DNA of 64,000 nucleotides from an uncultured Candidatus Saccharibacteria bacterium (GTDB lineage Bacteria > Patescibacteriota > Dojkabacteria > JAOAGR01), in contig CAZDBO010000001.1 of the NCBI GenBank assembly GCA_964503755.1, forward strand, positions 92,285 through 156,284, written 5' to 3'. The notes under the pieces are model-generated. The model did not search any database. It was not told the DNA's origin and was given only the letters and a program-made list of their open reading frames with translations. Numbering within the stretch: position 1 is the stretch's first letter; each line of letters starts with the position of its first letter. This document shows, piece by piece, positions 1,237 to 40,220 of this stretch. Made by a program: the position numbers and the translations under genes.

Positions 1237-1842
1237 TTATTTTTTATCACTTACATAAAAACAATCACCATGACCAGGATAGAGTAGAGTATCATCTGGT
1301 AATTCTAGTATTTTTTGAATTGATTTTCTCATATTAGTAGGTGAACTATAAGAAAAATCTGTTCTACCAATTCCATCTTCAAATATAGTATCACCAATAA
1401 AAGCGTATTTTTGATCTTTTATTATAAAAATACTTGATCCAGGTGTGTGACCAGGAGTCCATATAATTTCAAATTCAAAATTTCCAACACGAAATTTATC
1501 CGTATTTTCATCAAAAAACTTAATGTTTTTAGGTTTTAAATAATGCGGATCATAACCTAAAAAATACTCTGCAGTTTCTTTTAATCTTTCAATTAAAAAT
1601 TCATCTTTTTTATTAATGTAAAGTGGTACATCAAACGACAACTGAATTTCACCAGCTGCACCTATATGATCAAAATGACCGTGTGTCTCTAAAATTCCCA
1701 CTAGTTCCAAACGATTAGATAATATGAAATTTAATATAAAATCAGCTTCGTCCCCGGGATCAATCAAGACACATTGATCTTTTGCTTCAATAACATAACA
1801 GTTACTTTTTAGTGGCCCTAATACAAAATGGTATATTTTCAT
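1237..1842 (-). CDS. metallo-beta-lactamase-fold hydrolase (glyoxalase II-like)
   Basis: THGHFDH zinc-binding motif, 201 aa. Ends 2 nt before the malic-enzyme start and overlaps the ilvD stop by 4 nt. Confidence 0.7.
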
Positions 1843-3608
1843 TTATCCTTTTCTCTATTTATAGCTGCAAGAGTGTTGTCCATCACTGCACCATAGTTTG
1901 CACTCATCACATGTTGTGTATACCTTCCTAGCCATCCATTTTTTACTTTTGGCTCAAAAGGTGGAATATTTTCCATTCGTTCATTATATTCATCTTGAGA
2001 TATGAATAGATCAATTGTTCTTTTATATGCATCAATTTTTATTCTATCACCATTTTTTATAATTGCTATAGGTCCACCTGATGCTGCTTCTGGAGAAATG
2101 TGACCTACACAAAGTCCTCTAGTACCTCCAGAAAATCTACCATCAGTAATAAGTGCCGCTTTGACACCTATACCTTTTAATGCTGAAGTCGGAGATAACA
2201 TCTCTTGCATTGCTGGGCCTCCTTTTGGACCTTCGTACCTTATTACTACAACATCTCCATCTTTGATTTGTCTTTTCAAAATAGCATCCAGTGCATCCTC
2301 TTGAGAATCAAAACACACCGCGGTACCTTCAAATACCATCATATCTTCATCTACGCCTGCAGTCTTAACAACTGCACCATCAGGTGCGATATTTCCATAC
2401 AAAATAGCAAGTCCACCAGTTTTAGAAAACACATTATCTCCGCTTCTGACTACGTCTTCATCTGGTTCCATTGCATCAGCAATGTATTCTTCTAGTGTTT
2501 GTCCAATAATATTTTTACAATGCAAATTTAGTGGTGGGTTAGAAGATTTTTGTACTGCTTTTAATATAGTTTTAAGTCCACCAACTCTATTTACATCTTC
2601 GATATGTACATCTGGTCTTGATGGAGATACTTTGCATACATTTGGAGTCTGATCTGCTAATTCATTTATTCTTCTAAGATCGTAAGGTATACCAGCTTCA
2701 TAAGCTAACGCTAATGTGTGTAGAATAGTGTTTGTAGAACCACCCATCGCTAAATCTAGGATTATTGCGTTGTCTATAGACTCATAAGTAACTATATCTC
2801 TTGGTCTAATATTGTTTTGAAGTATATATTCTATAGCATCTGCCGCTCTTTCAAAGAGATTTATTCTTTCTGGATTGATTCTCCACGTGCCTTTTTCTTT
2901 ATCTATCCATTCAGCAGCAGGTACAGTACCATTGCCTGGCAATGCTAAGCCCAATACTTCAGCAAGACAATTCATAGAGTTGGCAGTGAACATACCCGCA
3001 CAACTTCCACAAGTACGACAAGCCTTTTCTGTAATTTTAATCAATTCATCTTCTGTTATTTTGTTGGCTGTGTATTTTCCTACACCTTCGAATACAGTTA
3101 TTAGATCTGTTTTGTCTTGACCTGCAAGCATTGGTCCGCCGGATATATAAAGAGCTGGTATATTTAGTCTTACCATAGCATTAAGGATTCCTGGTACTAT
3201 TTTGTCACAGTTACCGATACCTATCCAAGCGTCAGCAGGGTGGGCTCCTATTATTGTTTCTATCTGATCAGTAATTAGTTCTCTTGAAGGTAATGAATAC
3301 TTCATACCAAAATGCCCCATTGCGATGCCATCATCAACCAATCCACCGATGTTGCAGTACCAAACATTGAATCCCTTTTCTTTTAGTTTTTTTACGATAA
3401 TATCTCCAAGCTCGCGCAAATGGGCATGACCAGGAATGTGGTTTGTAAATGAATTTACAACAGTGATAAAAGGTCTATCTTTATCTTTTACGCTATCTAT
3501 TACTCCTGCTGCTATCATCAGAGATAGAGCAGGTAGCATATGAAGACTTTGAGTGAGTATTTTACTACCTTTTTGGTGGATTTGTTGGAATCCTGGATTT
3601 AATGCCAT
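1839..3608 (-). CDS. ilvD: dihydroxy-acid dehydratase
   Basis: 589 aa. IlvD/Edd-family motifs ([22 protein letters not shown]) and a conserved C-terminus. Confidence 0.9.
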
Positions 3609-3617
3609 TTTAATTTA

Positions 3618-4670
3618 TTATTCTTTTTGATTTTCCGGTCGGAGTTTCCTTACTTGTTCACCGGCTTGCCACATCTCTGAATTTCTCATTTTGGCAAGTT
3701 CAGCATTTAATTTCTCTCTATAGTTTTTTTGTTTATTCTTTCTAATTACTCTTTGAGCTTCTTTACCTGATGCTACTGATCTATAAAGCTCTTTAAAAAC
3801 TGGCATTACTGCTTTTTTGAATCTATCTTTCCAATCTAGAGCTCCCCTTTGTGCTGTTGTTGAACAGTTTGCAAACATCCAATCCATACCGTTTTCCGCA
3901 ATTAAAGGAATTAAACTTTGAGTAGCCTCCTCTACTGTTTCATTAAAAGCTTCAGACGGCGAATGGCCCATTTTTCTAAATAGTTCATACTGGGCCTCCA
4001 TGATGCCGGCCATCGCACCCATCAAAACACCTCTCTCCCCAACAAGATCCGAATATACTTCCTTCTCAAATGTTGTTGGGAAGAGATATCCTGTACCAAT
4101 TCCGATACCTATGCTGATAACCCTATCTCTCGCTTTTCCTTTAGCATCTTGATAGATTGCAAACGAAGCATTGATACCTTTACCTTCTAAAAAATTTTTT
4201 CTTACCGATCTTCCAGCGCCCTTTGGAGCTACTAAAATTACATCAATGTCTTTAGGAGGAATAATTTTTGTATATTTTGAAAATGTTATTCCAAAACCGT
4301 GAGAAAAACACAAAGCTTTTCCTGCTGTAAGGTATTTTTTAATCTTTGGCCATACTTCGATTTGTCCAGCGTCAGACAAAAGATAGCATATTATGGTACC
4401 TCTTTCAGCTGCCTCTTCTATTTCAAAAAGTGTTTTCCCCTCAACCCAGCCATCAGCTACTGCCTTGTCCCAAGATGCTGTTCCTTTTCTTTGACCGATA
4501 ATTACATTAAATCCATTGTCTCTCAGATTGAGAGCTTGGGCTGGACCCTGTACGCCATAGCCTATTATGGCTATTACTTCGTCTTTTAATGTTTGTTTTG
4601 CTTTTTCTAGTGGATATTCTTTTTTGGTGATGACTTCTTCTACGACACCACCGAAATTTATTTGTGTCAT
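3618..4670 (-). CDS. ilvC: ketol-acid reductoisomerase
   Basis: 350 aa. N-terminal Rossmann GYGVQGPAQALNLRDNG typical of class I KARI. Confidence 0.9.
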   Translation of the reverse strand: MTQINFGGVVEEVITKKEYPLEKAKQTLKDEVIAIIGYGVQGPAQALNLRDNGFNVIIGQRKGTASWDKAVADGWVEGKTLFEIEEAAERGTIICYLLSDAGQIEVWPKIKKYLTAGKALCFSHGFGITFSKYTKIIPPKDIDVILVAPKGAGRSVRKNFLEGKGINASFAIYQDAKGKARDRVISIGIGIGTGYLFPTTFEKEVYSDLVGERGVLMGAMAGIMEAQYELFRKMGHSPSEAFNETVEEATQSLIPLIAENGMDWMFANCSTTAQRGALDWKDRFKKAVMPVFKELYRSVASGKEAQRVIRKNKQKNYREKLNAELAKMRNSEMWQAGEQVRKLRPENQKE

Positions 4671-4831: not shown

Positions 4832-4917
4832 GCCGGGGTGGCGGAATGGTAGACGCTACGGACTTAAAATCCGTTGCCTGCAAAGGCGTGAGGGTTCGAG
4901 TCCCTCCTCCGGCACCA
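4832..4917 (+). tRNA. tRNA-Leu (anticodon UAA), type II with long variable arm
   Basis: Cloverleaf folded by hand. Acceptor GCCGGGG/CTCCGGC (one G-U); anticodon loop CTTAAAA; variable arm GCCTGCAAAGGC; T-loop TTCGAGT; genomic CCA end. Confidence 0.85.
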
Positions 4918-5004
4918 CACTTCGTTTATAATTTATATTTATTATTCCATCATTTAGTTAGTAAAATTGTAGTTTGTACTATTATTTTCATAAGATGAAC
5001 GATT

Positions 5005-5484
5005 GTGATACTATTAATATATTTTATGCAATTTAGAGAAACAATTTCCAAGCTAAAAAGTATACAATTTTTAAAATATCTTTTGACAGGGGGAGAATCT
5101 TTTCTAGTAGATTATGGCGCTTATAATGCAGTGTTTTTTATTTTGATAAATTTTGATCTAAATAGAGAGATATCAAGTAGTATTGGTAATTTTGTTGGTA
5201 TGACGTTGGGATTGATTACTTCATTTATTGGTAATCAAAAGTTTGTTTTTAATAGATCTAAAGAAACTATGATGAGTAATTTTTCTAAATATCTTTTGTT
5301 ATTTTTGTTCAATTATTTTGCTTCTTCTGGCTTGATTATCTTATTATCATATTTTTTAAATCTTATTTTGGATTTAATCAATCTATCATCGACAGATTTA
5401 AGCTATTCTATATCAAAATTTGTAGTAATGTTTATTCTCATTTTTTGGAATTTTCTTATGTACAAAAAAGTAGTTTTTAAATAA
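5005..5484 (+). CDS. GtrA-family membrane protein (polyisoprenyl-phosphate sugar flippase-like)
   Basis: About 150 aa with 4 predicted TM helices. LKYLLTGG...VDY...NFxxNxxFVF pattern typical of GtrA. The true start may be the Met at about 5026. Confidence 0.55.
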   Translation: MILLIYFMQFRETISKLKSIQFLKYLLTGGESFLVDYGAYNAVFFILINFDLNREISSSIGNFVGMTLGLITSFIGNQKFVFNRSKETMMSNFSKYLLLFLFNYFASSGLIILLSYFLNLILDLINLSSTDLSYSISKFVVMFILIFWNFLMYKKVVFK

Positions 5485-5496
5485 AATCTAAGTATT

Positions 5497-6414
5497 ATGA
5501 AAAAAGTTTCTATCATAATACCAGCATACAACGAGTCAGGACAATTGGATATCACTATTGAAAATCTAGAGCAGGTTTTAGCTGATGCTGATTTTAAGAA
5601 AGAGATAATAATTGTAGATGATGGATCTACAGATGATACATGGGCTCGGATCAAACAACTAAAAGAAAAATATAAACATATTGTCGGTATAAGATTTAGT
5701 AAAAATTATGGAAAGGATAATGCAATATTTGCAGGATTAAAATCGGCTAGTGGCGATGCAGCTGTAGTTTATGATGCAGATATGCAGTTTCCAGCAAATA
5801 TGATATTAGATATGTATAAATATTGGACTACTGGATATAAAATTATTGAAGGAATCAAAGAAAATAATGATCCTGCAAAAGATAATGTTTATTTATTTTT
5901 TGCAAATGCCTTTTATTTTGTATTAAAACTTTTTACAGGTATCGATCTAAGAAGAAATTCAGATTTTAAGTTTTTGGATAGACAAGTTGTAGATGTTATT
6001 TTGCAGCATCAGGAAAGTAATGTATTTTTTCGAGGAATAATAGAGACTCTAGGTTTTCCAAAGCTTTCTTTGTCTTTCAAAGTACAAAATCGCATTGTAG
6101 GTACAAGTAAATGGAGTTTTCGTAACTATTTAAACATGGTTTACAATTCTATTATTCTCTTTACTACATTACCACTTCAGATAAGCTTAGTTTTTACTGT
6201 AATATTTTTTATGTTTTTGCTTTTTTTGTCGGTAGATACTTTCTTGAGATGGTTGCTTGGATTTTCTTTGGAAGGTTTTACAACAGTGATTTTATTGGTC
6301 ATCATAGCAACAATAGCAATCATGATAAATTTAAGTATTTTGGGGATTTATATAGCCAAGATTTATAATGAAATAAAACGCCGACCTAAATATATAATTT
6401 TAGAAAAGCTATAG
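5497..6414 (+). CDS. GT2 glycosyltransferase, GtrB/DPM1/CsbB-like polyprenyl-phosphate hexosyltransferase
   Basis: IIIPAYNE, IIVDDGSTDDT and DAD motifs of the GT-A fold. Two C-terminal TM helices as in GtrB. Confidence 0.8.
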   Translation: MKKVSIIIPAYNESGQLDITIENLEQVLADADFKKEIIIVDDGSTDDTWARIKQLKEKYKHIVGIRFSKNYGKDNAIFAGLKSASGDAAVVYDADMQFPANMILDMYKYWTTGYKIIEGIKENNDPAKDNVYLFFANAFYFVLKLFTGIDLRRNSDFKFLDRQVVDVILQHQESNVFFRGIIETLGFPKLSLSFKVQNRIVGTSKWSFRNYLNMVYNSIILFTTLPLQISLVFTVIFFMFLLFLSVDTFLRWLLGFSLEGFTTVILLVIIATIAIMINLSILGIYIAKIYNEIKRRPKYIILEKL

Positions 6415-6418
6415 ATTT

Positions 6419-8668
6419 ATGTTTGCTATTATTTTACTTACTTTATGGTTTTGGACAGGATATCTTATTGTAAAGAAAATATTAAAAGTTGATAGTTTTT
6501 TGAAAGGTTATTCTTTATTAAATGAAAAAGTAAGTATCAGACCTTGGTTTGTTATTTTTCCTGCAAGCTTTTTGGTTGGTATCTTGATTTCTAATTGGAT
6601 AGTTTATCTTTTAGCATACTTTTTACAAGATGTAGACAATAATATTTTGATTTCAAATGGAATTTTTATACTTTTTCTAATTGGTTTATCAATATTTTTA
6701 TATCGAGCTTACTTAATAAAATTGCTAGAAATTGGAAAAGTACAAAATTTAGCTTTAGTTAATATTAAACCAGTTCAAAATAAGCTAATTAGGTGCTTAA
6801 AAAATAATTTTTATGAAATACTATTAGTATTATTTTTCTTGTTTTTTTCTAGTTTTTTGATGTTTTATACATTTCGAATAGAAGATAACAAAATTTTAAT
6901 GGGGCCAGGGGTTTATTCGGACATGTCAGCTCATATCACTATGATTCGATCTTTGTCCTTTGGAGATAATATACCTACTAGATATCCATTTTTCTACGAA
7001 AATGATGTATCAATCAGATACCATTTTATGTTTCAGTTTATGGCTGCAAATTTGGAGATATCTGGTTTGCCTTTGGATTGGGCTATTAATGTGCCTAGCA
7101 TACTTTCTCTTGTTTCTTTTTTGATGCTTTTGTACGCCTTGTCTACTATTTTGTTTGGGAAGAAATTTATCTCTATTCTCGTTGTACTATTTTTTATTTT
7201 TAGGACAGGGCTTGGTGGATTTTATTATGTTTATGAGCTTTACCAGTATATTGAGGGAGGAGAACTGACACGAGGATTAGAAGTAAAAAATAAATCTAAT
7301 CCGTTGGTAATGAATGGAGAAGAAATCGACAGTGTTTTAGAAGGTATTATAAATACAGATTTTTATGTGGGAGAGACACAAAATGAAATATGGGGGCTAT
7401 ATAGCATAAATGTTTATGTAAATCAGCGCCATTTGGCTTTTGGTATGGGAATTATGTTATTGATATTGTTTTTTGTGATTAGAGATTTTTTGGTATTTTG
7501 GCGTAAATTAAGACATAAAATATACAATCTTAGTGTTTTTGAGAAAACGAAATTTTTTGTAAAAGAGATGTTTTTAACAAAATCAGCTTGGTTTCCAAAT
7601 AATCTATGGGTCTACTTGGGATTGGGTATAATTTTAGGGTTATCTGGCTTTTGGAATGGGGCTGTTTTGATATCAACTTTACTAATTTTATCTATATTGA
7701 CTTTGTTTTCTAGATATAAACTTAGGTTAGCAATTCTAATCTTCATAACTTGTGTATTGTTCTTTTGGCAAGTAAATTTTTTTATTGGCAGTAATGTTGA
7801 GACCAAAACAGAGACTATTATTAAATTTGGTTATTTGGCGGATATACCTTATCATATTCAATATAATCTTCATCAGCTAATAGTTAAAAAAGAATGGTTT
7901 GAGGCATTTTTGTATCTTTCAAATATCGTTCCTTATGTGATTCAGTTTATTTGGGATTTACTTGGAGTTTTTGCTTTGATAATTCTTGTTTTACTGATAT
8001 TTAAGGATGCGGCTTATAGGATTTTAATTATCTCTTTTCTAATGCCATTTATTTTTGCTTTTACAACTAACTTGACTGTAGATATGAATGTGAACCATAA
8101 ATATGTTTTGATATCGATTATTTTACTAAATATATTTATCGCTTATTTCTTTTACAAATTGTCTAAATCAAAATATGTAACAAAATTTATCTTTATAATG
8201 TTGATTTTGGCTTATATCTTTACTGGTATTTTAGATTTTATAGCGTTTGTTAATTCTAACAATTCAAAATTTGCAATTAAATTTGATTTGAATAATGAGT
8301 TTTATAAATGGGTGATAGAAAAGACTGAACCTAATTCTGTTTTTGTTACAGGATATGTAACAGTCTATCCTGTTGGTTATTCGGGTAGGTATTACTTTGC
8401 GGCATGGCCATATTTTGCTTGGTCAGCTGGATATGATACTGTTGGGAGAGAGAAAATTTTACAGTCGATTTATTCAGCTACAGATTTGGATAAATTAAAG
8501 CAGATTTTATATGCTAATAACATTGATTATGTAGTTATAGACTCGGCAGTGTTGAATGATAAATTGTTTAAAGTAAATGAAAAAATATTTAAGGAAAATT
8601 TCGAACTTGTTTATCAAGATTCCGATCCGGTATATGGCTCCGTTAGAATTTATGATGTCAGGGATTAG
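6419..8668 (+). CDS. GT-C fold polytopic membrane glycosyltransferase (GtrC/YfhO/ArnT-like)
   Basis: 749 aa with more than 12 predicted TM helices and a C-terminal soluble domain. Third gene of the GtrA-GtrB cassette. Confidence 0.45.
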   Translation: MFAIILLTLWFWTGYLIVKKILKVDSFLKGYSLLNEKVSIRPWFVIFPASFLVGILISNWIVYLLAYFLQDVDNNILISNGIFILFLIGLSIFLYRAYLIKLLEIGKVQNLALVNIKPVQNKLIRCLKNNFYEILLVLFFLFFSSFLMFYTFRIEDNKILMGPGVYSDMSAHITMIRSLSFGDNIPTRYPFFYENDVSIRYHFMFQFMAANLEISGLPLDWAINVPSILSLVSFLMLLYALSTILFGKKFISILVVLFFIFRTGLGGFYYVYELYQYIEGGELTRGLEVKNKSNPLVMNGEEIDSVLEGIINTDFYVGETQNEIWGLYSINVYVNQRHLAFGMGIMLLILFFVIRDFLVFWRKLRHKIYNLSVFEKTKFFVKEMFLTKSAWFPNNLWVYLGLGIILGLSGFWNGAVLISTLLILSILTLFSRYKLRLAILIFITCVLFFWQVNFFIGSNVETKTETIIKFGYLADIPYHIQYNLHQLIVKKEWFEAFLYLSNIVPYVIQFIWDLLGVFALIILVLLIFKDAAYRILIISFLMPFIFAFTTNLTVDMNVNHKYVLISIILLNIFIAYFFYKLSKSKYVTKFIFIMLILAYIFTGILDFIAFVNSNNSKFAIKFDLNNEFYKWVIEKTEPNSVFVTGYVTVYPVGYSGRYYFAAWPYFAWSAGYDTVGREKILQSIYSATDLDKLKQILYANNIDYVVIDSAVLNDKLFKVNEKIFKENFELVYQDSDPVYGSVRIYDVRD

Positions 8669-9675
8669 TAGATAATATTTACTTCAAATTCTAATTCTAT
8701 ATCAAATTTTCTTTTTACTTCTTCTTTTATGATGTTGGCTAATTCTAAAATATCTCTTCCTGTTGCGTTATTTTTGTTTATCAAAACCAATGCATGATTT
8801 TGATGCACAGAAGCACCTTTGTGCTGGTATCCTTTAAATCCGCATTGTTCGATTAACCATCCTGCGGGTATTTTGACACAAGATTCTTTATTAGTTGGGT
8901 AGGTGGGCATATTGGGGTATTCAATTAATAGTTTATTTATTAAATTCTTTTCGACCTCTGGATTTTTGAAAAAACTCCCAGCATTACCGATTTTATTTGG
9001 GTTTGGTAGTTTTTTGCGACGTATATAAGTAATAATATTTGCTAATAATTTTGGTGATAGTCTTTTTATTTTTCTTCTTTCTAGTTCCTCTTTGATCCCT
9101 GCATATTCTCGTTTGTAATTGTGTTTTTTTGTGGTTAGTTTTAGACTGATTTCTGTTATAAAAACTTTGTTTTTTAGTTCTTTTTTAAATATGCTGTCGC
9201 GATATCCAAAGTCGCATTCATTTTTTGTTAAGATAAAAAATTTTTTGTTAATCAGATCAAAACATTTTACGTATTCGATAGATTCTGCAATCTCCACGCC
9301 ATATGCTCCTATATTTTGTATAGGTGCACCGCCAACTGTACCTGGTATATAAGCAAGATTTTCTATACCTCCCCAATCATTTTGGGTGACAAACTTTACT
9401 AGATTGGTCCAAGATTCGCCGGAATTTATTGACAGATAAATATAATTATCAATTTCTTTAATAACTTTTATCCCTTTTATTTTGTTGTGAATTACTAATC
9501 CATCAAAATCGTCGACAAATAAAACATTTGAACCTCCACCTAGAATAAAATATTTATGATTGAGATTTAAAATTTCTAAATCTTTAATGTCATTAATAAT
9601 TATGTATTGATCAGCTTTTGTGTGTAAATGAAAAGTATTTATCTTGTAAAGATCTTTATTCTTGTAGTATCTCAT
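8665..9675 (-). CDS. murB: UDP-N-acetylenolpyruvoylglucosamine reductase
   Basis: 336 aa. FAD-binding ILGGGSNVLF. Conserved C-terminal MurB substrate domain (KNPxxxxAGWLIEQCGFKG). Confidence 0.85.
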   Translation of the reverse strand: MRYYKNKDLYKINTFHLHTKADQYIIINDIKDLEILNLNHKYFILGGGSNVLFVDDFDGLVIHNKIKGIKVIKEIDNYIYLSINSGESWTNLVKFVTQNDWGGIENLAYIPGTVGGAPIQNIGAYGVEIAESIEYVKCFDLINKKFFILTKNECDFGYRDSIFKKELKNKVFITEISLKLTTKKHNYKREYAGIKEELERRKIKRLSPKLLANIITYIRRKKLPNPNKIGNAGSFFKNPEVEKNLINKLLIEYPNMPTYPTNKESCVKIPAGWLIEQCGFKGYQHKGASVHQNHALVLINKNNATGRDILELANIIKEEVKRKFDIELEFEVNIIY

Positions 9676-10222
9676 TTTTATCTCTTTTCTTCCATTTTAC
9701 GTCTTCTTGGCTATTTAATAAATTTAGATACCGGGCTATAACAAAAAGAAAATCTGATAATCTATTGAAAAATATCAAGATCTCTTGTCTTATTAGTTTA
9801 TTTTTAGCATTGATCTTGACTATCTTTCTTTCTACTCTTCGACAAACGGCACGGCATATATGAGTATAGCAGGCACTTTCACAACCACCGGGTAAAATAA
9901 AATTTGTAAGTTTTGGTAGCTGTTGTTCTATTTTGTCAATACAGTTTTCTATGTATTTAATGTCTTCTTTATCGATGGATTCCTGATCTAACCCAGCTAC
10001 CTCAGCTCCTATATCAAAAAGAATATTTTGGATCCAAGAAATGATTGATTTTAGTTCATCATCAACTTTTTCTTTGGACAAAAGATGGGTTAGATAGCCA
10101 AGATGCGAATTAAACTCGTCTATTTCTCCGCAAAGTTCAATGCGGAAATTATTCTTTTTTACTCTTTTTCCACTGGCAAGTGATGTAAAACCACTATCGC
10201 CAGTGCGGGTGTAGATGGACAT
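9656..10222 (-). CDS. ATP:cob(I)alamin adenosyltransferase, PduO-type (Cob_adeno_trans domain)
   Basis: IYTRTGDSGFTSL N-terminus and LIFFNRLSDFLFVIARY closely match PduO N-domain motifs. Confidence 0.8.
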   Translation of the reverse strand: MSIYTRTGDSGFTSLASGKRVKKNNFRIELCGEIDEFNSHLGYLTHLLSKEKVDDELKSIISWIQNILFDIGAEVAGLDQESIDKEDIKYIENCIDKIEQQLPKLTNFILPGGCESACYTHICRAVCRRVERKIVKINAKNKLIRQEILIFFNRLSDFLFVIARYLNLLNSQEDVKWKKRDKNEILQE

Positions 10223-10319: not shown

Positions 10320-11684
10320 TTATCTGCCAAATATAACTCCCTTTTCATCCTCCAAAACCCCCTTACTTGTCCCAAATCTTGGGTATAAATTTAGATTTTT
10401 AACAAAAATCTGGTTGTTTTTTATAGAAACATCTCTAAATTCTATAGCCACAGCAAATGTGCCAGAATGGATGTTGTTTGCCGGTTTGTCATCTAAAAAT
10501 CTTTCTGAAATCAATTTTACATAACATTCTGCCAAAATTGGGCTTAATTGATGTTTTTTTATTAGATTTTGTGCTATTTTTTCTAAGTTTTTTATTAATT
10601 TTGATTTTTGTTTGTGTATTTTTCGTAAGATATTTTTGTTGTTTTGATAATGAAGTATTTGCTTGTAAGTTGGTTTAAAGATCAATGCAAATTTTGTCAG
10701 ATTTTTTGCGATTTGAATCAGTTCATTTTGAGATAAATTTATACCAAATGATAAGAGTTTTTCTACTACCGACAAAATAATTTTTTCTTTTATTTTCTTT
10801 GATGAAATATGATATTCTAAGCATCCAGACATCAGTATCTCATATATTTCAGAAAATATCTTTACTATATTGATGATTTCTATAATAGCTTGGTCGATAG
10901 ATATTGGAATAGAATAGTGTATATTGATTTTTTGAGTAAAACTTAAATGACGGTTATCACAGATTATATTTCTAATAAATTTGGTTTTTTCATTTGTTAT
11001 ATTTCGAGTTAGATTTGTTATGCTATCCCTGTTTGTTTCATAAAATAACTCGTTGAATACACCAATATGTTTAAGTATTTCATCAGACGTTGGTATCTTG
11101 TAGAAGGCATGTTTGTCAATTGTATTTTGACTAATATACGTTACATGAAAATGTCCATCAGATGCACTTTGACATCCTCTTGATAGGCCATACTTATCTC
11201 TGGTTGCTTGATCTGTATGTCCCATCATCCCATAAATATGCAGATTTTGATAAATAGAATCTTTATGATATTCATACATTATTCTTACTGCCTCAATAAT
11301 CTGTGTTGATATCATCTCGGCACAAGATTTGATTTGTTCTTGATTTTTTAGTGATAGATCTAATATATTGCATCTTTTAGGATTCGAATCTGCATTTTCA
11401 AACCACCAGATGATGAACTGTGAAGGTATTAGATTACCTTGATATTCCATCATATCAAGTGTATGTGGAGATGCCGCTAGTGTATTTATACCGACAAACT
11501 CTTGATTTCTATAGAGTTTGCCTATTTGTGTATTGAGTAAACTATTAAAAAAATTTGTATTTGTATTATCAGTTCTTGGTACAAATGAAGGTATTTTTAT
11601 AAAAGGTAATTGATATTCTATTTTCTTTAGCTTTTTATCAATCTTTTTAATTATGTTTATTAAATTGATTTGCTTTTTCACCAA
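10320..11684 (-). CDS. hypothetical protein (454 aa) with possible HIT-like His motif
   Basis: No clear family. GMMGHTDQ...SASDGHFHVTYI recalls the HxHx(H/Q) nucleotide-binding motif of the HIT/GalT superfamily. Very Lys/Asn/Ile-rich. Confidence 0.3.
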   Translation of the reverse strand: MVKKQINLINIIKKIDKKLKKIEYQLPFIKIPSFVPRTDNTNTNFFNSLLNTQIGKLYRNQEFVGINTLAASPHTLDMMEYQGNLIPSQFIIWWFENADSNPKRCNILDLSLKNQEQIKSCAEMISTQIIEAVRIMYEYHKDSIYQNLHIYGMMGHTDQATRDKYGLSRGCQSASDGHFHVTYISQNTIDKHAFYKIPTSDEILKHIGVFNELFYETNRDSITNLTRNITNEKTKFIRNIICDNRHLSFTQKINIHYSIPISIDQAIIEIINIVKIFSEIYEILMSGCLEYHISSKKIKEKIILSVVEKLLSFGINLSQNELIQIAKNLTKFALIFKPTYKQILHYQNNKNILRKIHKQKSKLIKNLEKIAQNLIKKHQLSPILAECYVKLISERFLDDKPANNIHSGTFAVAIEFRDVSIKNNQIFVKNLNLYPRFGTSKGVLEDEKGVIFGR

Positions 11685-11809: not shown

Positions 11810-13528
11810 ATGTCAAACGATTCTGAAGAAGTAAAAACGGGTGCTGAATTGGTGGCTCAAACTATTGTTGACCTTGGTATAGATATGATCTTTGGTTATC
11901 CTGGTGGTGCTATCATGCCAGTACATGATGCTCTTTATGTATATGAATTGCAAGGAAAAATGAAACATTATGTCCCAAGACATGAACAAGGTGGTATACA
12001 TGCTTTAGAAGGGTATGCAAGAGCGAGTGGAAAAGTTGGGGTTATATTTGTGACGTCTGGTCCTGGTGCTACTAATTTGGTAACAGGTATTGCTGATGCT
12101 CTTATGGATTCTGTACCAGTTATATGTATTACAGGACAGGTAGCAACACATTTGATAGGCACAGAAGCTTTTCAGGAAACAGATATTATAAATGTTACTA
12201 AACCTATCACCAAATGGAATTATCAAATCAGAGATCCAAGAGAGATACCATATGTTTTGGAAAAAGCTTATTATATAGCAACGACTGGGCGACCAGGTCC
12301 TGTACTAATAGATATACCTAAAGATATGCAGACAGCAAAAGTAGATCTGTCTGAAGTGCAACATTTTGAAATTCCTAAAGAACAATATGACTTAGATGAA
12401 AGTTTGATAAAAGAAGCAGCAGAGTTGATTAATTCATCACAAAGACCACTTGTATTGGTGGGGCATGGAGCTATTATTTCTAATGCACATGATGAAATAA
12501 AAGAATTGTTAGAAAAAGGACATCTGCCATTTGCTTGTACTTTACATGGATTATCTACATTGCCCAAGACTCATCCAAGTTATGTAGGTTTTTTGGGAAT
12601 GCATGGTAATTATGCACCAAATAAGCTTACAAATGAGGCTGATTTGCTAATTGCTCTAGGTATGCGTTTTGATGATAGAGTCACTGGTAATCTTAAAAAA
12701 TATGCACCAAATGCTAGGGTAATTCATATTGATGTAGAGAAATCTAAGATTAACCGTAATGTAAAAGCAACAATTGGTATTAATGCAGACTTGAAAGTTG
12801 CGTTATCAAAATTGAATAAGTATATCAAATTTGTAGATAGAAATTCTTGGTTTGATAGGTTTAGCGAATTGCATTCCATCGAAACAGAAAAAGTTATTAA
12901 AGATCAAATTAATCCAACAAGTGACAACATTTTAATGGCAGAAGTTGTTAAACTACTTTCGGATATCACCAATGGTAGTGCAAATATAGTAGCAGATGTC
13001 GGCCAACATCAAATGATAGCAGCAAGATATTATGAATTTCAAAGATTAAATAGCTTCTTTTCATCTGGTGGATTGGGAACTATGGGATTTGCTCTTCCTG
13101 CTGCGATTGGTGTTAAATTAGCAAGGCCTCATGAAGAAGTTATAGCTATTATTGGTGATGGAGGATTTCAGATGACCATGCAAGAACTTGCTCTGATATC
13201 CTATGAAAATATACCTGTAAAAATAATAATTTTGAATAATGGATTTTTGGGTATGGTCAGACAATGGCAAGAGATGTTTTTTGATAAGAGATATGCCTAT
13301 ACAAATATGAGTAATCCAGACTTTGTAAAACTAACAGAGGCTTATGGAATAAAAAGTAGGCGTGTTGATTCTAGATCTCAGCTAAAAGAAGGTTTGATTG
13401 AGTTAGTAAGGTCTGAGAGAGGATATTTATTAGAAATTATTGTACAAAAAGAAGATATGGTATTTCCTATGGTGCCTCCAGGTGCATCTATAGAAGAAGT
13501 TGTTTTGGAATCACCTAATCTAGAATAA
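11810..13528 (+). CDS. ilvB: acetolactate synthase / acetohydroxy-acid synthase large subunit
   Basis: 572 aa ThDP enzyme. GYPGGAIMPVHDAL; GDGGFQM...NNGFLGMVRQWQ ThDP-binding motif. Confidence 0.85.
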   Translation: MSNDSEEVKTGAELVAQTIVDLGIDMIFGYPGGAIMPVHDALYVYELQGKMKHYVPRHEQGGIHALEGYARASGKVGVIFVTSGPGATNLVTGIADALMDSVPVICITGQVATHLIGTEAFQETDIINVTKPITKWNYQIRDPREIPYVLEKAYYIATTGRPGPVLIDIPKDMQTAKVDLSEVQHFEIPKEQYDLDESLIKEAAELINSSQRPLVLVGHGAIISNAHDEIKELLEKGHLPFACTLHGLSTLPKTHPSYVGFLGMHGNYAPNKLTNEADLLIALGMRFDDRVTGNLKKYAPNARVIHIDVEKSKINRNVKATIGINADLKVALSKLNKYIKFVDRNSWFDRFSELHSIETEKVIKDQINPTSDNILMAEVVKLLSDITNGSANIVADVGQHQMIAARYYEFQRLNSFFSSGGLGTMGFALPAAIGVKLARPHEEVIAIIGDGGFQMTMQELALISYENIPVKIIILNNGFLGMVRQWQEMFFDKRYAYTNMSNPDFVKLTEAYGIKSRRVDSRSQLKEGLIELVRSERGYLLEIIVQKEDMVFPMVPPGASIEEVVLESPNLE

Positions 13529-33450: not shown

Positions 33451-34041
33451 ATGAAAGAAGGTAAAAAAAATCAAAAAATAAAAAAATTGGATAAACAATT
33501 CGATGGTGCTACAAACGAAGAAAAGTTTAATGAAAAGCCGTTGAATAATGATAATGATTTAGACGAACACGGAATAAATGATTCTAAGGTAGATCAAAAT
33601 TTTCAAGAACATACTCAGGAACAAATAGAAGATTATAAAGATAAATATATTCGACTGCAGGCAGAATTTGCTAATTTTGCTCGACAAAAGGAACAAGAGA
33701 TTTTATCAGCTACTAATTTTGCCAAAAATAATATATTACTTAGGGTTTTAGAAGTTATAGATGACATCGAAGCCTATCTAACACAGGAAAATATAAATGA
33801 AGAAGTAAAGAATATTTTAAGTATTTTACTAGCTAAACTGAATCTTCTTATAACTCTTGAGGGAGTAACTGTAGTAGAAATTAATCCTGGTGATGATTTT
33901 GACTATACAATAGCCGAGGTTGTAGATACCACTCCATCTCAAGATGAATCCCAAAAAGGTAAAGTAGCTTATGTGATCAAGAAATGCTATAAAATTTATG
34001 ACAAAGTTTTAAGAACGGCAAAAATCATCGTTTTTAAATAA
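33451..34041 (+). CDS. grpE: nucleotide exchange factor GrpE
   Basis: 196 aa. YIRLQAEFANFARQ coiled coil and C-terminal beta domain (VAYVIKKCYKIYDKVLRTAKIIV). Confidence 0.8.
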   Translation: MKEGKKNQKIKKLDKQFDGATNEEKFNEKPLNNDNDLDEHGINDSKVDQNFQEHTQEQIEDYKDKYIRLQAEFANFARQKEQEILSATNFAKNNILLRVLEVIDDIEAYLTQENINEEVKNILSILLAKLNLLITLEGVTVVEINPGDDFDYTIAEVVDTTPSQDESQKGKVAYVIKKCYKIYDKVLRTAKIIVFK

Positions 34042-34925
34042 TGAAAAAATATATCAGGAAACGTATACTGCGTATAAAATATACTGATCTTATACAGCCA
34101 TTAGTGACTTTAATAATTGTTGGTTTGATAGGATTTCTAGTATTTAACATGTTCACTGGTGGTCAAGAGCAGGAGCAAAGAGTTATAAAAGAAATTTATA
34201 AAATATTTACTTTCGATGAAATGGTTCAAAATATGACCACCGGCAAACTACAAATACTTACCAATGGAGTCATATATTTTTATACTGATAACAACTCTGC
34301 TTCTGCTCAGACAGCGAATACACAAAATACAAGCACAGTTACTCTAACTCAGGTACAATCTACACCTTCTCAAAATAAAGACACTTTGATAGAAAGAAAA
34401 TTAGATAATCACTATTTTTATATTGATAACGGAAAATTGATCAGAGTAGAGGATAGAAATTTCGGTGCCAATAATACAATTTTCATTGATAGGGATGGTT
34501 CAGTTGTTGTTGCTTCTGGATTGACAGGTAAATATATTAGGTATCCTGAACCGGCTGATGATGAAAGTGATGAAATAAAATCAATTTTCTTCGGAGTGAA
34601 GAACTTCGTTACAAGTATTTATCCAATAGGCGCATTGATTGATGATTATAAAAATGAGAGATTTTTCCCAGTGGAAAGAGCTAATAACATATTTAGTGGA
34701 AAATGGAGACATCCTCTTTTTACATCAGATAAAGTATTAAATATAATTATAAGTATAGATGGTGCTACAGGTTTTGTTGATACAATGAAGATAGCTACAG
34801 TGCCAGAAACTTCGATTACATTTCAGGTTAGAAAATTAACTGAAAATCATGATTTGTATTTTTTACCACAAGGATATAAAGAACAAGAATTGGATTACAA
34901 ATATCGAACAAAAAATAATACATAG
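34041..34925 (+). CDS. hypothetical membrane-anchored (N-terminal TM) extracytoplasmic protein
   Basis: 294 aa. One N-terminal TM helix (LVTLIIVGLIGFLVF). No recognisable domain. Confidence 0.4.
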   Translation: MKKYIRKRILRIKYTDLIQPLVTLIIVGLIGFLVFNMFTGGQEQEQRVIKEIYKIFTFDEMVQNMTTGKLQILTNGVIYFYTDNNSASAQTANTQNTSTVTLTQVQSTPSQNKDTLIERKLDNHYFYIDNGKLIRVEDRNFGANNTIFIDRDGSVVVASGLTGKYIRYPEPADDESDEIKSIFFGVKNFVTSIYPIGALIDDYKNERFFPVERANNIFSGKWRHPLFTSDKVLNIIISIDGATGFVDTMKIATVPETSITFQVRKLTENHDLYFLPQGYKEQELDYKYRTKNNT

Positions 34926-37931: not shown

Positions 37932-40220
37932 TTATTCTGACGTTTGATTATTCGAATTTTGTTCTTCACAAAATTTTATATCATTATCTATATCCCAAAT
38001 AATATATAATTCTTTATTGGAAAGCTTGTCTTTTGATTCTTTGAATAAATTATAAATCTTCAAAGCTTCGGTACATTGATTACTGAGTTTGTATAAATCA
38101 GCTAATCCTTCATTATATTCGTCTAAAATCGGTAAATATATCAAAGCTTCCTGAATGTAGCGTGATGCTTGGTTTGCATTGTTGGTATCCAATAATATTC
38201 TTCCAATTCTAAATAATGTATCGGGATGACGATTGTAAAGATTTAATACATTTTGAAAGTATGCTAGAGCAGTATTGTAAGAATCAAAATTAGTATTTTT
38301 ACTGTTTGAAAATGCATTTTGTAGTCTGCCAATTTCATAGTAATAATATCCCATCAAATAGTGGTTTTTATATTCGTAAGGATTATTAGAGATTGCTCGA
38401 TTAAGAATTGTTATATTATTGTTTACTATATTATTAATAAAATTTTGATCTCCTTCAGAAATTTCATAATTTGGATCAACTCTTTTATTTACAATTAGTT
38501 CATTGATTTTATTGGTTAATATATTTAGCTGTGCAGTTGCAAATTCTCTTAGATAAATGTCATTATATGGCTGCCAAGAGATTGCGTTTAATATATGATT
38601 TGTATATTCAGAAAATAATTTTTCATCGTTAGAGCTTCTAGAATATTCAATTAAATATTTCTTTCCAGCGTTGATATAATAGTTACCAACTCCTATAATG
38701 AATAAGTTGTAAATAGAAAATCCAATTATTATCATTATTATTGTTGGTACAACGTAATTAAACCCAACTATTGGTTTGGAAAATCTACCTTTTGCAAAAA
38801 GTAAAATTTTTGATGCTGGATTTTCTATATTCATAAATGAAACAAGTAATATATTAACAAAGAATGCAAGCATCAATGCTGTAGTATCCAGTCTATAAAG
38901 AAGCATAAAGAAAACTACAAATGCATTAGTTGCACCCAAAAATACAGTAGTAATATCATAATTGTAGATACCATTTTGGATCATTCTAAGTATTGGCCAC
39001 AAAAATATCAATAATATTAACAATATACCTATCACGCCTAAATCGTGAATTATTTGAAATATAAATGTAGATGCATGTATAGCTCGTAGTTCATAAACAG
39101 ATGGTGCTTGAGCGTTGATGGTAAGAGGAGTTTGAATTTGTCCATTAATATTTGCAGGGTTTTGCAGGCCAGATGGCTTGTATACATCAAAAGTATACAT
39201 ATAAGATCCAAACCCATTTCCAAGAAGAATAGAATTAATGTTAGATTGAGAATATTTTGACAATATTACTCGCCATGATAAATCAGGGCTTTGAGCACGT
39301 ACTGAGGGTAAGAGTATTCCTAATTGGACCAAAATTATGTAAGAAATAATACCAACTAACCATGGAATTACCACGATTAGATGAAATATTGTTGGCTTAA
39401 ATTTAATTGATGTGCGTATTATCGAATACATAAATGTAATAAAGACAAAAATCAAACTGGTTTCAAAAATAGGTATAGGTAGTGAAATAATTTTTGTTAC
39501 TAAAAAAAATGATAGTATATTAACAAGAGTTGTAAATAGATCAATCATTAAAATAATCTGATTTTTTCTACTGGAGATTTCTGAGTTTAAGATACGAATA
39601 ATGTTTATATATCCTAAACATACTGCAATAAAGAATACAAATGCAGCTGATCTTAGATCGCCACTAGGATAAAAATTTACATTATTTATGAAATTGCCTA
39701 TTGATGGATTAGAGATGATAAATTCTGTACTTAATCTTATAACTAAATACAATCCGGATAAACTAATACCCGTATATATCGCTCTTAATAATGGAAAGAA
39801 ATTCGCTCTATTTTCAATAATATTTAATGATAAAAATGCGAAAATAATTAGATTAATAAACTCGATAAATGAATTATCAATAGTGTAAAAATTACCAAAC
39901 ATGTTATTTAGATAGAAAGCAGAATAAAATATAGAAAATATACTCAACAGGCCAAGAACAATTAGAAATATATTGTGTGATGTAAATATAAACCTTATTT
40001 CCTTCTCTTTGTATATCTTATAAAACCAATACGCAATCAAAGATAAATTGATAATCGAAAGGATCAAAACTTTAGAAAAAGCTATTGATCCAAAGTATCC
40101 TAATGAATCAAAATATATGTTTGGGTTGATATAAGGATTTAGAAAGAAGAAAAATGAAGCAATTAAAACATAAAATATATTCTTTAGTGCTATTTTTTTT
40201 AATGCCGATTTAATATTCAT
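37932..40220 (-). CDS. polytopic membrane protein with C-terminal TPR repeats (O-antigen ligase/Wzy_C-like)
   Basis: 762 aa. About 12 predicted TM helices in the N-terminal 480 aa, then TPR-like repeats (YKNHYLMGYYYYEIGRLQNA...). Confidence 0.4.
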   Translation of the reverse strand: MNIKSALKKIALKNIFYVLIASFFFFLNPYINPNIYFDSLGYFGSIAFSKVLILSIINLSLIAYWFYKIYKEKEIRFIFTSHNIFLIVLGLLSIFSIFYSAFYLNNMFGNFYTIDNSFIEFINLIIFAFLSLNIIENRANFFPLLRAIYTGISLSGLYLVIRLSTEFIISNPSIGNFINNVNFYPSGDLRSAAFVFFIAVCLGYINIIRILNSEISSRKNQIILMIDLFTTLVNILSFFLVTKIISLPIPIFETSLIFVFITFMYSIIRTSIKFKPTIFHLIVVIPWLVGIISYIILVQLGILLPSVRAQSPDLSWRVILSKYSQSNINSILLGNGFGSYMYTFDVYKPSGLQNPANINGQIQTPLTINAQAPSVYELRAIHASTFIFQIIHDLGVIGILLILLIFLWPILRMIQNGIYNYDITTVFLGATNAFVVFFMLLYRLDTTALMLAFFVNILLVSFMNIENPASKILLFAKGRFSKPIVGFNYVVPTIIMIIIGFSIYNLFIIGVGNYYINAGKKYLIEYSRSSNDEKLFSEYTNHILNAISWQPYNDIYLREFATAQLNILTNKINELIVNKRVDPNYEISEGDQNFINNIVNNNITILNRAISNNPYEYKNHYLMGYYYYEIGRLQNAFSNSKNTNFDSYNTALAYFQNVLNLYNRHPDTLFRIGRILLDTNNANQASRYIQEALIYLPILDEYNEGLADLYKLSNQCTEALKIYNLFKESKDKLSNKELYIIWDIDNDIKFCEEQNSNNQTSE

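Follow-up and report, generated by a model that had tools for sequence, protein, structure and literature searches.

GtrA-GtrB-GtrC modules, which direct O-antigen glucosylation by phages and enterobacteria in Shigella flexneri and Salmonella, consist of a small GtrA protein with four transmembrane (TM) helices, a GtrB-type synthase of undecaprenyl phosphate (Und-P)-linked sugar and a polytopic GT-C-type transferase. The cassette analyzed here, which lies in a 64-kb window (the whole stretch of DNA studied), has the same gene order and logic and is likewise adjacent to a tRNA gene. In contrast to the phage gtr modules, it comes without a prophage, an integrase or an att site, is compositionally native and occupies a conserved locus. 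Its host, too, is different, a Dojkabacteria-like CPR bacterium with a tiny genome, in which, to our knowledge, O-antigen synthesis is not expected.

The same three-step mechanism, together with outward-facing conserved acidic residues in the GT-C, is found in Firmicute CsbB/GtcA/YfhO, which glycosylates teichoic acids, and in the streptococcal GtrB/PgtC2 and PgfS/PgfM1 systems. The latter two attach O-linked sugars to disordered regions rich in Ser and Thr (bioRxiv 10.1101/2024.05.05.592596). Two further GT-C groups are relevant. DPY19 (CAZy GT98, Pfam PF10034; CeDPY19 structures PDB 7ZLG-7ZLJ) was described as the tryptophan C-mannosyltransferase of the eukaryotic ER, with a Dol-P-Man donor, 13 TM helices and the catalytic Glu71 located in the loop that follows TM1. 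DUF2298 (Pfam PF10060) is an uncharacterised GT-C-like family of bacteria and archaea.

The tRNA-Leu locus and its GtrA and GT2 proteins

Three ORFs of the same strand follow the tRNA-Leu gene, which is of the long-variable-arm type and encodes its CCA end (Table 1). They are separated by only 12 nt (GtrA/GT2) and 4 nt (GT2/GT-C), and the end of the third overlaps by 4 nt the stop of the convergent murB gene (8665-9675); ilvC flanks the locus on the other side. The Pfam matches of the first two products and the more than 1000 homologues of the third indicate that these are genuine genes and not chance ORFs. A tRNA-Leu followed by a GtrA-like protein, a GtrB/CsbB-like GT2 and a 749-aa GT-C is what the earlier note had read from this sequence, and ARAGORN, Rfam, Pfam and Foldseek bear that reading out. 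The spacer downstream of the tRNA is the presumed promoter region; a promoter scan of the spacer found no enrichment over shuffled sequences.

Table 1. Positions, in the window, of the cassette genes, the preceding tRNA and the sequence elements discussed in the text
Feature	Position	Strand	Basis
tRNA-Leu, anticodon UAA (TAA)	4832-4917/4914	+	ARAGORN / Rfam RF00005, 60.4 bits
AT-rich spacer between tRNA and cassette	4918..5025	.	sequence reading; repeat search without att-like repeat
GtrA-family small membrane protein, 152 aa	5026..5484	+	Pfam PF04138, hydropathy
GtrB/ArnC/DPMS-type polyprenyl-phosphate glycosyltransferase (GT2), 305 aa	5497..6414	+	Pfam, NCBIfam, PDB and PHROG matches
GT2 DxD motif D93-A-D95 (GtrB D94xD96)	5773..5781	+	HMMER alignment, residue mapping
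GT2 K121 (GtrB R122)	5857-5859	+	HMMER alignment
GT2 D156 (GtrB catalytic D157)	5962-5964	+	HMMER alignment
GT2 R199 (GtrB R200)	6091-6093	+	HMMER alignment
GT2 membrane region at the C-terminus with its two TM helices, residues ~218-290	6148..6366	+	hydropathy; aligned to GtrB TM helices
Membrane glycosyltransferase with GT-C fold, unannotated family, 749 aa	6419..8668	+	
GT-C first large extracytoplasmic loop, residues 152-218	6872..7072	+	invariant columns; outside by positive-inside analysis
GT-C clade-specific insertion, ~28-30 residues, second outer loop, residues ~279-310	7253..7348	+	
GT-C E323-x-W-G ... N335-Q-R-H338 motif, outer end of a TM helix	7385..7432	+	invariant columns
GT-C D555 ... 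N559-H-K561 motif, outer face	8081..8101	+	H560 and K561 invariant
GT-C C-terminal extracytoplasmic alpha/beta domain, residues 614-749	8258..8665	+	
GT-C invariant W663-P-Y-F-A-W-S-A-G-Y-D-T674 motif in C-terminal domain	8405-8440	+	

The first protein matches the Pfam GtrA_DPMS_TM profile over its entire length (positions 1-117 of 117; E = 7e-14) with 52.5 bits, above the cut-off of 26.1 bits, and shows four hydropathy peaks (residues 25-41, 53-69, 90-118 and 129-145); a PHROG search returned no match. The longest ORF begins with GTG at 5005 (159 aa), but the start is most likely the ATG at 5026, since the orthologue in a relative whose GT-C is 74% identical is called as 152 aa. The protein is presumed to be a helper or flippase for a lipid-linked sugar; such flipping is not known to have been proven, even for those GtrA proteins that have been characterised.

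The second protein combines a GT-A fold with two C-terminal TM helices. It matches Pfam Glycos_transf_2 (4.9e-26), PHROG 841 'GtrB-like' (2.1e-63, full length), Synechocystis GtrB in the PDB (5EKP; 5.2e-43, residues 4-302 against 28-327, HMMER) and the ArnC structure (3.5e-32, full length including the TM helices). The best NCBIfam match is PgfS (5.6e-58), and ArnC is matched as well (6.7e-39), both over the full length; the scores of 196.6 and 133.8 bits are far short of the equivalog cut-offs (500 and 529 bits, respectively), and we therefore give the sugar no name. This shortfall sets the GT2 apart from the Firmicute systems and, in the absence of other arn genes, from the ArnC/ArnT/ArnEF lipid A aminoarabinose pathway. 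The functional residues of GtrB are D94xD96 and the catalytic D157, the arginines R122, R200 and R290 for binding of the acceptor phosphate, R125 and K132, and the juxtamembrane residues A136 and Y140 (PMC4728340). In the alignment, the acidic residues are matched by those listed in Table 1, and K121, R199, A136, Y140 and K288 occupy the positions of R122, R200, A136, Y140 and R290; R125 and K132 are not kept, N124 and Y132 standing in their place. The two C-terminal TM helices typical of polyprenyl-phosphate transferases are present, as anticipated: the hydropathy peaks are 2.47 and 2.93 (residues ~218-256 and ~252-290), and both helices fall within the full-length alignment to the GtrB structure.

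The 749-aa protein and its family

The more than 1000 homologues of the 749-aa protein (E down to 0) reduce to 853 representatives at 50% identity, mostly from Clostridia; members are overwhelmingly from Bacillota, and the Dojkabacteria-like clade is isolated. We found no biochemical characterisation of any member in the literature, and the family is unnamed, though the cassette as a whole is a standard set of three components for linking one sugar to something at the cell surface. Pfam, NCBIfam and PDB sequences gave no match to the 749-aa protein. In particular, PMT, PMT_2 (ArnT-like) and YfhO had no Pfam or NCBIfam match at E <= 1, which is a further difference from the Firmicute systems, and phage GtrC had no PHROG match at E <= 0.01. 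Of the 37 family members scanned, not one hit a PMT, PMT_2 or YfhO model; YkcB_C was matched weakly by a single one (E = 0.12). One member (P0010) carries a 'YfhO family' label in the databases, which our own Pfam scan did not support.

One might suppose that such a protein is a transporter, a flippase or a structural membrane protein that merely happens to lie beside a GT2, since without Pfam, NCBIfam or PDB sequence matches the assignment as an enzyme rests on predicted structure. Yet Foldseek searches with the predicted structure retrieved DPY19, AglB and STT3 as best matches, GT-C enzymes having a probability of 1.00, whereas transporters scored non-significantly (E > 0.2, probability < 0.1, TM-scores of ~0.1). 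Invariant polar residues are grouped in loops that face outward, a pattern also seen in GT-C enzymes, and there is profile-level homology to DPY19 and DUF2298. We thus consider a non-enzymatic role highly improbable: as modelled, the protein has a GT-C fold. The earlier assignment to GT-C rather than to transporters holds, then, while its candidate families (PMT, ArnT, YfhO and GtrC) receive no support from Pfam, NCBIfam or PHROG.

The protein has ~14 TM helices and a C-terminal extracytoplasmic domain, a large domain that ArnT is without, and the positive-inside pattern agrees across 37 homologues. By this rule, all the conserved polar residues face outward, namely D168/H172/R177, E323...NQRH338, D555...NHK561 and the WPYFAWSAGYDT motif. 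The invariant residues of the first large outer loop are D168 (6920-6922), H172, R177, Y201 and H202. D168 is invariant in two alignments (of 37 and 19 sequences) and is aligned with an invariant Asp of DUF2298. On the strength of conservation, topology and this 84%-probability profile alignment, the loop is proposed to be catalytic, with D168 as the candidate base. A catalytic Asp or Glu in the first periplasmic loop had been expected; an invariant Asp does lie in the first large outer loop, but it comes after predicted TM4 and not after the first TM helix, the usual GT-C site. D555...NHK561 is a candidate phosphate-binding site. The insertion in the second outer loop was found only in the window protein, the 74% relative and a relative (L090) with a 44% identical GT-C; it is modelled with low confidence (pLDDT 55-70).

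Alignment by hhalign to DUF2298 (83.7%, E = 8e-6) covers 515 columns that begin at TM4 and run to the C-terminus, and pairs D168 with D, NQRH (of the E323...NQRH338 motif) with GDLH (of the LGDLHAH motif), D..NHK with D..N..K and W..W with W..W. The two groups frequently occur in the same gene clusters. Nevertheless, identity is ~17%, and the DUF2298 model is unmatched by the window protein and by most family members, so the family is, on these profile comparisons, separate from DUF2298.

Similarity to DPY19 is concentrated in the C-terminal part. A C-terminal profile matches CeDPY19 (E = 5.6e-5), with only the final TM helix and the luminal domain aligned, and the C-terminal domain of the 749-aa protein also matches those of AglB, STT3 and PglB. 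For the N-terminal, catalytic half, no solved GT-C is matched at the sequence level; its profile gives no DPY19 match by which Glu71 or the phosphate contacts Arg211/Arg471 could be placed. The Pfam Dpy19 model is not matched by the 749-aa protein, but is by 4 of the 37 family members at profile positions ~434-594 of 653 (P0094, 38.5 bits; P0100, 34.7 bits; cut-off 27.2). The family thus appears remotely related to both DPY19 and DUF2298, and it differs from the former in the number of TM helices (~14 against 13) and in the candidate Asp168 after TM4.

Origin of the cassette

The position of the cassette directly 3' of a tRNA gene led the earlier note to see in it the context of horizontally acquired gtr cassettes. 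Such an island would have integrated at tRNA-Leu in the manner of the serotype-converting gtrABC of Shigella and Salmonella phages. The GtrA-GT2-GT-C order in this position does resemble phage gtr modules, the match of the GT2 to the phage 'GtrB-like' PHROG is strong, the cassette has a lower total GC (0.24-0.29) than the flank with ilvC and ilvD (0.37-0.38), and the family is dominated by Bacillota. However, probes from the tRNA-Leu 3' end (25 and 16 nt, up to 3 mismatches) matched only the tRNA itself in the entire 64-kb window, and no att-like direct repeat near 8668 and no relevant repeat family were among the repeats found. Between ilvC and murB, there are no integrase, phage or mobility genes, only the three cassette genes, and housekeeping genes abut both ends. 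Nor is the composition atypical: GC3 of the cassette genes is 0.20-0.24, the window mean being 0.207 (sd 0.035), their synonymous codon use gives z-scores between -0.34 and +0.29, all within 1 sd of the window genes, and the GC deficit is located at the first and second codon positions, a pattern shared with other membrane proteins encoded in the window. The GT-C and GtrA proteins have no PHROG match, and triads in other phyla have no neighbouring tRNA.

The order ilvD-ilvC-tRNA-Leu-GtrA-GT2-GT-C-murB is kept in the Dojkabacteria MAG with the 74% identical GT-C, the one lineage compared at this site. Taken with the normal GC3 and codon use and the missing att repeat, this synteny, which includes the tRNA, argues that the cassette is long-resident and vertically inherited in this Dojkabacteria lineage, and we regard recent integration at tRNA-Leu as very improbable. 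An ancient inter-phylum transfer is plausible, given the isolated position of the Dojkabacteria-like clade in the family.

Proposed sugar donor, acceptor and course of the reaction

The gene order of three-component glycosylation systems, as claimed from the sequence, recurs beyond this lineage, the triad being present also in Chitinibacteraceae, Methyloglobulus and some Bacillota. Of the 75 species loci that could be evaluated, 43 have a GtrB-like GT2 immediately upstream of the GT-C, which supports functional coupling of the two and suggests that the GT-C may draw on a polyprenyl-phosphate-linked sugar donor; in 21 of the 75, a GT2 is absent within the examined flanks. The full triad is found in 7 of these 75 loci. 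GtrA is missing from most family loci, including that of the 44% relative, and is therefore dispensable or replaceable.

We consider it likely that the three genes form an operon-like, long-resident unit, and not a recent island, for lipid-carrier-dependent extracytoplasmic monoglycosylation. At the cytoplasmic face, the GtrB-type GT2 would load undecaprenyl phosphate with one hexose or N-acetylhexosamine taken from a nucleotide sugar; the lipid-linked sugar would then reach the outer face, presumably with the help of the GtrA-family protein, and the 749-aa GT-C would hand it on to an extracytoplasmic acceptor. In this scheme, the carrier lipid and the acceptor are inferred, as are the role of GtrA as flippase and that of D168 as catalytic base.

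As to the acceptor, we lean slightly, and tentatively, towards an extracytoplasmic protein, because the C-terminal domain is DPY19/OST-like. It is also quite possible that the same machinery modifies a non-protein envelope polymer or lipid; candidates are wall polysaccharides, teichoic-acid-like or other, as well as lipoglycans and membrane glycolipids. CsbB/YfhO, GtlA/GtlB, ArnC/ArnT or the mycobacterial Aft/Emb enzymes would then be the parallels. Clostridial members of the GT-C family have as cluster neighbours a UDP-galactopyranose mutase, another GT2 and a DUF2298 GT-C-like protein, and in one lineage the neighbours are MptA-like and PMT genes; both settings look like glycopolymer assembly loci. 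The neighbours murB here and ftsW and bacA in the 44% relative point in the same direction. On the other hand, DPY19, a protein glycosyltransferase, is the one solved structure to which the sequence provides a link, and this link runs through the domain lying over its peptide-binding site; an invariant motif of the family is aligned with the DPY19 'peptide sensor' Tyr578, and the best Foldseek matches are DPY19, AglB and STT3. The DPY19 paper describes the domain core as conserved in Emb and Aft enzymes as well, which weakens its weight against a polymer acceptor.

With a protein as acceptor, the family could be an undescribed bacterial sister of DUF2298 that shares with DPY19 the C-terminal substrate-covering domain and glycosylates extracytoplasmic proteins from the Und-P-monosaccharide made by a GtrB-like partner dedicated to it, a reading that we put forward as possible but rather doubtful. 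Actual tryptophan C-glycosylation in bacteria by this family is, at best, exceedingly improbable; among the results on the cassette, there was no pointer to C-glycosylation or to a WxxW sequon. If true, the broader reading would give the C-mannosylation enzyme of the ER a counterpart in bacteria, possibly one related to it by descent, and the cassette would be the first system for glycosylation of surface proteins to be defined in a CPR/Patescibacteria cell.

Gene organization of the cassette

The tRNA-Leu gene and the three co-directional genes that follow it were recovered by ARAGORN, Rfam and ORF analysis where the earlier note had placed them, the sole change being the start of the GtrA-family gene. 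The closest named relative has this orthologue annotated at 152 aa, which corresponds to a start at ATG 5026 instead of the upstream GTG 5005. The GtrA and GT2 genes are separated by 12 nt, the GT2 and GT-C genes by 4 nt, and the GT-C gene overlaps the stop of convergent murB by 4 nt. Upstream of the cassette, ilvC and ilvD lie on the opposite strand; downstream, murB is followed by genes for a PduO-type corrinoid adenosyltransferase and an unannotated 454-aa protein. Promoter and terminator scans gave no enrichment over shuffled sequences. A functional tie between the cassette and murB was rejected as unsupported, given the convergent orientation of murB and a neighbourhood that is kept in close relatives only.

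Coordinates of the cassette and of other features discussed
Feature	Position	Strand	Remark
ilvD, ilvC and acetolactate-synthase-like TPP enzyme	1839-4670 and 11810-13528	- and +, respectively	
tRNA-Leu(UAA)	4832-4917	+	ARAGORN, Rfam agreeing
GtrA-family ORF	5005/5026-5484	+	
GT2 ORF	5497-6414	+	
749-aa GT-C ORF	6419-8668	+	
murB	8665-9675		convergent to cassette
PduO-type corrinoid adenosyltransferase	9656-10222	-	
454-aa ORF	10320-11684	-	
294-aa protein	34041-34925	+	downstream of grpE
762-aa polytopic membrane protein	37932-40220	-	

Two observations concern the neighbours. The 454-aa ORF has no Pfam or NCBIfam match; its counterpart in a Dojkabacteria relative is a 457-aa ORF in the same position (L001 11908-13281), while the annotation of the Dojkabacteria MAG GCA_026415655.1 splits it into two genes (L002 7016-8390), suggestive of a frameshift or of a difference in assembly in that genome. 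The ilvD, ilvC and acetolactate-synthase-like genes belong to branched-chain amino-acid biosynthesis, a notable presence in a Dojkabacteria-like lineage, which is usually described as biosynthetically reduced.

Family and fold of the cassette proteins

The GtrA product covers the whole Pfam GtrA_DPMS_TM model (E = 7e-14, above the cut-off) and has four hydrophobic segments. The GT2 product matched Pfam GT2 (4.9e-26), the phage "GtrB-like" PHROG (2.1e-63) and, end-to-end, the structures of ArnC (3.5e-32) and of Synechocystis GtrB (crystal and cryo-EM; 5.2e-43, residues 4-302 against 28-327). Functional residues of GtrB (PMC4728340) were mapped through the latter alignment. As can be seen from it, D93-x-D95 of GT2 corresponds to D94xD96 of GtrB, D156 to D157, R199 to R200, K121 to R122 and K288 to R290; A136 and Y140 are identical, and GtrB R125 and K132 are not conserved. 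The C-terminus of GT2 carries two strong hydrophobic helices, as the earlier note had anticipated for an enzyme of this type. Judging from these alignments, GT2 is a polyprenyl-phosphate glycosyltransferase, and both it and the GtrA protein are ordinary members of their families. No sugar was assigned to it, since the equivalog models for PgfS and ArnC were matched at scores far below their cut-offs.

The 749-aa protein had no match in Pfam or NCBIfam at E ≤ 1, nor in PHROGs or PADLOC; the PMT, ArnT, YfhO or GtrC assignments considered for it were thus not borne out. One database entry of the family is labelled "YfhO family", a label that a Pfam scan of this entry does not back. When PDB sequences were searched at E ≤ 10, no match was obtained with the full-length protein alone (phmmer) or with a full-length profile of 37 sequences. 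A defence role for the cassette was rejected, as PADLOC gave no meaningful defence-system match. The protein has more than 1000 homologues, and an AlphaFold2 model computed from 37 of them was confident (mean pLDDT 88.2, pTM 0.91). In a Foldseek comparison with the PDB, the best 22 matches were all GT-C enzymes (probability 0.99-1.00), including CeDPY19 (the solved structure of the C-mannosyltransferase DPY19), AglB, STT3A/B, AftA, PglB, AftD and ArnT. The first transporter in the ranking had E = 0.22 and probability 0.09, which argues against the transporter identity raised beforehand as the alternative. Its modelled fold puts the 749-aa protein in the GT-C superfamily.

Its relationships within this superfamily were followed with profiles. 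Pfam Dpy19 was matched by 4 of 37 family members, two of them above the cut-off, the similarity being confined to the C-terminal part of the model. A profile of the C-terminal third of nine members retrieved exactly one PDB sequence, CeDPY19 (E = 5.6e-5), over its last TM helix and luminal domain; the invariant WPYYAW of the family aligns with HPHY578EH of CeDPY19. No other query reached this protein: the N-terminal profile gave a chance match only, and phmmer with P0094, the most Dpy19-like family member, failed to find it. An hhalign comparison with four DUF2298 proteins spanned 515 columns, beginning at TM4 and running to the end (83.7% probability, E = 8e-6), and placed the family motifs on DUF2298 invariants (D168 on D, NQRH on GDLH, D...NHK on D...N..K and W...W on W...W). 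When 1.84 billion cluster representatives were searched exhaustively with the family profile, 853 members were obtained at E ≤ 1e-30 (representatives at 50% identity) and 3,108 at E ≤ 0.001. The Dpy19 Pfam matches, the CeDPY19 profile match, the DUF2298 alignment and these counts point to a distinct, medium-sized, uncharacterised family related to DUF2298 and, via its C-terminal part, to DPY19. These two are its nearest, if remote, named relatives; it falls within neither, and belongs to no named family. Neither Pfam nor NCBIfam has a model for the family and none of its members is characterised; literature searches found, in the library covered, no paper describing it and nothing pertinent on bacterial DPY19/GT98 relatives.

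The topology, mapped from model helices and K+R counts per loop over 37 homologues, is self-consistent: about 14 TM helices are predicted, with both termini outside and the basic loops (22-41, 95-130, 369-396 and 583-585) inside. All invariant polar residues fall in outward-facing predicted segments. D168, H172, R177, Y201 and H202 lie in a 67-residue loop after TM4; the others are R262, E323...N335-Q-R-H338, D555...N559-H-K561 and D606, and the outward C-terminal domain bears the invariant motif W663-P-Y-F-A-W-S-A-G-Y-D-T674. The leading candidate for a catalytic carboxylate is D168. An Asp or Glu in the first periplasmic loop had been expected; an invariant outward-facing candidate does exist, but it follows the fourth helix, whereas in PglB, ArnT, PMT and DPY19 the catalytic residue comes after the first. 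The outer loop that follows the D168 loop contains a clade-specific insert of ca. 28-30 residues, modelled with low confidence; it is carried by the window protein and by the two relatives nearest to it.

Residence of the cassette and gene coupling across phyla

Adjacency to the tRNA gene had been read as the mark of a horizontally acquired cassette. The last 25 or 16 nt of tRNA-Leu have no second copy in the 64-kb window with 3 mismatches allowed, so the att-like repeat looked for near 8668-8700 is absent; no relevant direct repeats occur near 8668 and no integrase is found in the surroundings. The three cassette genes have GC3 values of 0.199, 0.211 and 0.243 (window mean 0.207, sd 0.035) and synonymous-codon likelihood z of +0.29, +0.24 and -0.34, within the window distribution; their total GC is lower because of codon positions 1 and 2, a trait shared with the other hydrophobic proteins encoded in the window. 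In GCA_026415655.1, whose GT-C is 74% identical, the order ilvD-ilvC-tRNA-Leu-GtrA-GT2-GT-C-murB-ATR-hyp-ilvB-tuf-S10 is the same. These results speak against a recent tRNA-targeted island: the tRNA adjacency is here no evidence of one, and the cassette is long resident. The only compositional outlier nearby is the PduO-type gene, which has the most atypical synonymous codons of 47 genes (z = -2.18).

The next-closest GT-C, 44% identical, is encoded on an AT-rich metagenome contig (L090 336-8223, JGI 3300017461), where the GT2/GT-C pair directly follows ftsW/rodA near bacA (undecaprenyl-diphosphatase), with neither GtrA nor tRNA. Neighbour-joining (NJ) grouped the window protein with its 82%, 74% (Dojkabacteria) and 44% relatives in a long isolated branch with 100% support. 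For the whole family, an ancient transfer between phyla is plausible; the proteobacterial clade, too, sits among Bacillota sequences. The position of the Dojkabacteria-like clade inside this mostly Bacillota family had a bootstrap value of 24%, and we claim no donor lineage or direction of transfer.

Gene coupling was assessed in 80 loci from GTDB species representatives, 75 of which had enough upstream sequence to judge. A GtrB-like GT2 orthologue (E < 1e-40) lies directly upstream of the GT-C gene in 43 of the 75, often with overlapping stop and start; 11 have instead a short GT2 just downstream, and 21 have neither. The full triad is present at seven of the 43 loci (Dojkabacteria, Chitinolyticbacter, Deefgea, Methyloglobulus, a gammaproteobacterial MAG and two Bacillota), and also in Andreprevotia lacus (L009). 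Tight linkage of the GT-C to a dedicated GtrB-like synthase is seen in Bacillota, Proteobacteria, Chloroflexi and the small Dojkabacteria-like clade. The pairing of GT2 with GT-C is thus conserved as a unit that moves between phyla, which supports a donor-synthase/transferase relationship.

Many Clostridia carry, in order, GT2, GT-C, UDP-galactopyranose mutase (Glf), a short TM-less GT2 and DUF2298 (for example, L007 5027-12365 and L008 4784-12471), that is, two synthase/GT-C pairs on either side of a galactofuranose precursor enzyme. Many of the 80 loci repeat this arrangement, the second GT2 lying ca. 1.1-1.3 kb downstream of the GT-C stop. Proteobacterial carriers are mostly chitinolytic genera (Chitinolyticbacter, Deefgea, Andreprevotia), and in Chitinolyticbacter meiyuanensis two secreted-type CBM_5_12 (chitin-binding) proteins are encoded immediately downstream of the triad (L004 8095-9698).

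Proposed mechanism and acceptor

The standard three-step Und-P-sugar mechanism is best supported. GT2 would make Und-P-monosaccharide in the cytoplasm, the lipid would be translocated with GtrA as the presumed helper, and the GT-C would transfer the sugar at the outer face, as in three-component systems of the GtrABC, CsbB-YfhO or PgfS-PgfM1 type. For the acceptor, we give a protein a slight edge over a wall or membrane glycopolymer or lipid, and leave a small share to other acceptors; in favour of protein we counted the Foldseek ranking, a C-terminal domain that is OST-like, and the sequence link to DPY19, which runs through the domain covering the acceptor site.

Two other window genes may be mentioned. 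The 762-aa membrane protein ends in a TPR region (Pfam TPR_19, 2e-4; NCBIfam PilW-like TPR, 9e-8) and matches no catalytic family. Polytopic and TPR parts are combined in this way in some enzymes of envelope glycans (O-antigen-ligase-like or GT-C plus TPR), so that the window could encode in it a second enzyme for surface glycans. The 294-aa protein has an N-terminal membrane anchor (residues ~20-37) and a Ser/Thr/Gln/Asn-rich linker (residues ~83-112; 43% Ser+Thr over 30 residues), and is the only real window gene with such a Ser/Thr-rich stretch. As regions of this type are O-glycosylated in streptococci (10.1101/2024.05.05.592596), it may, speculatively, be an acceptor candidate.

The system itself (lipid-phosphate-sugar synthase, GtrA protein and GT-C transferase) is textbook, and the interest lies in the unstudied transferase family. 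Literature searches on Patescibacteria and GtrA returned nothing pertinent, and no paper on a gtr-type system in Patescibacteria was found in the library covered. The remote DPY19 link bears on the origin of eukaryotic C-mannosyltransferases. Once defined, the acceptor would annotate hundreds of genes of gut and anaerobic-digester Clostridia and, for CPR bacteria, would identify one of the few dedicated surface-modification systems in an otherwise sparse genome.
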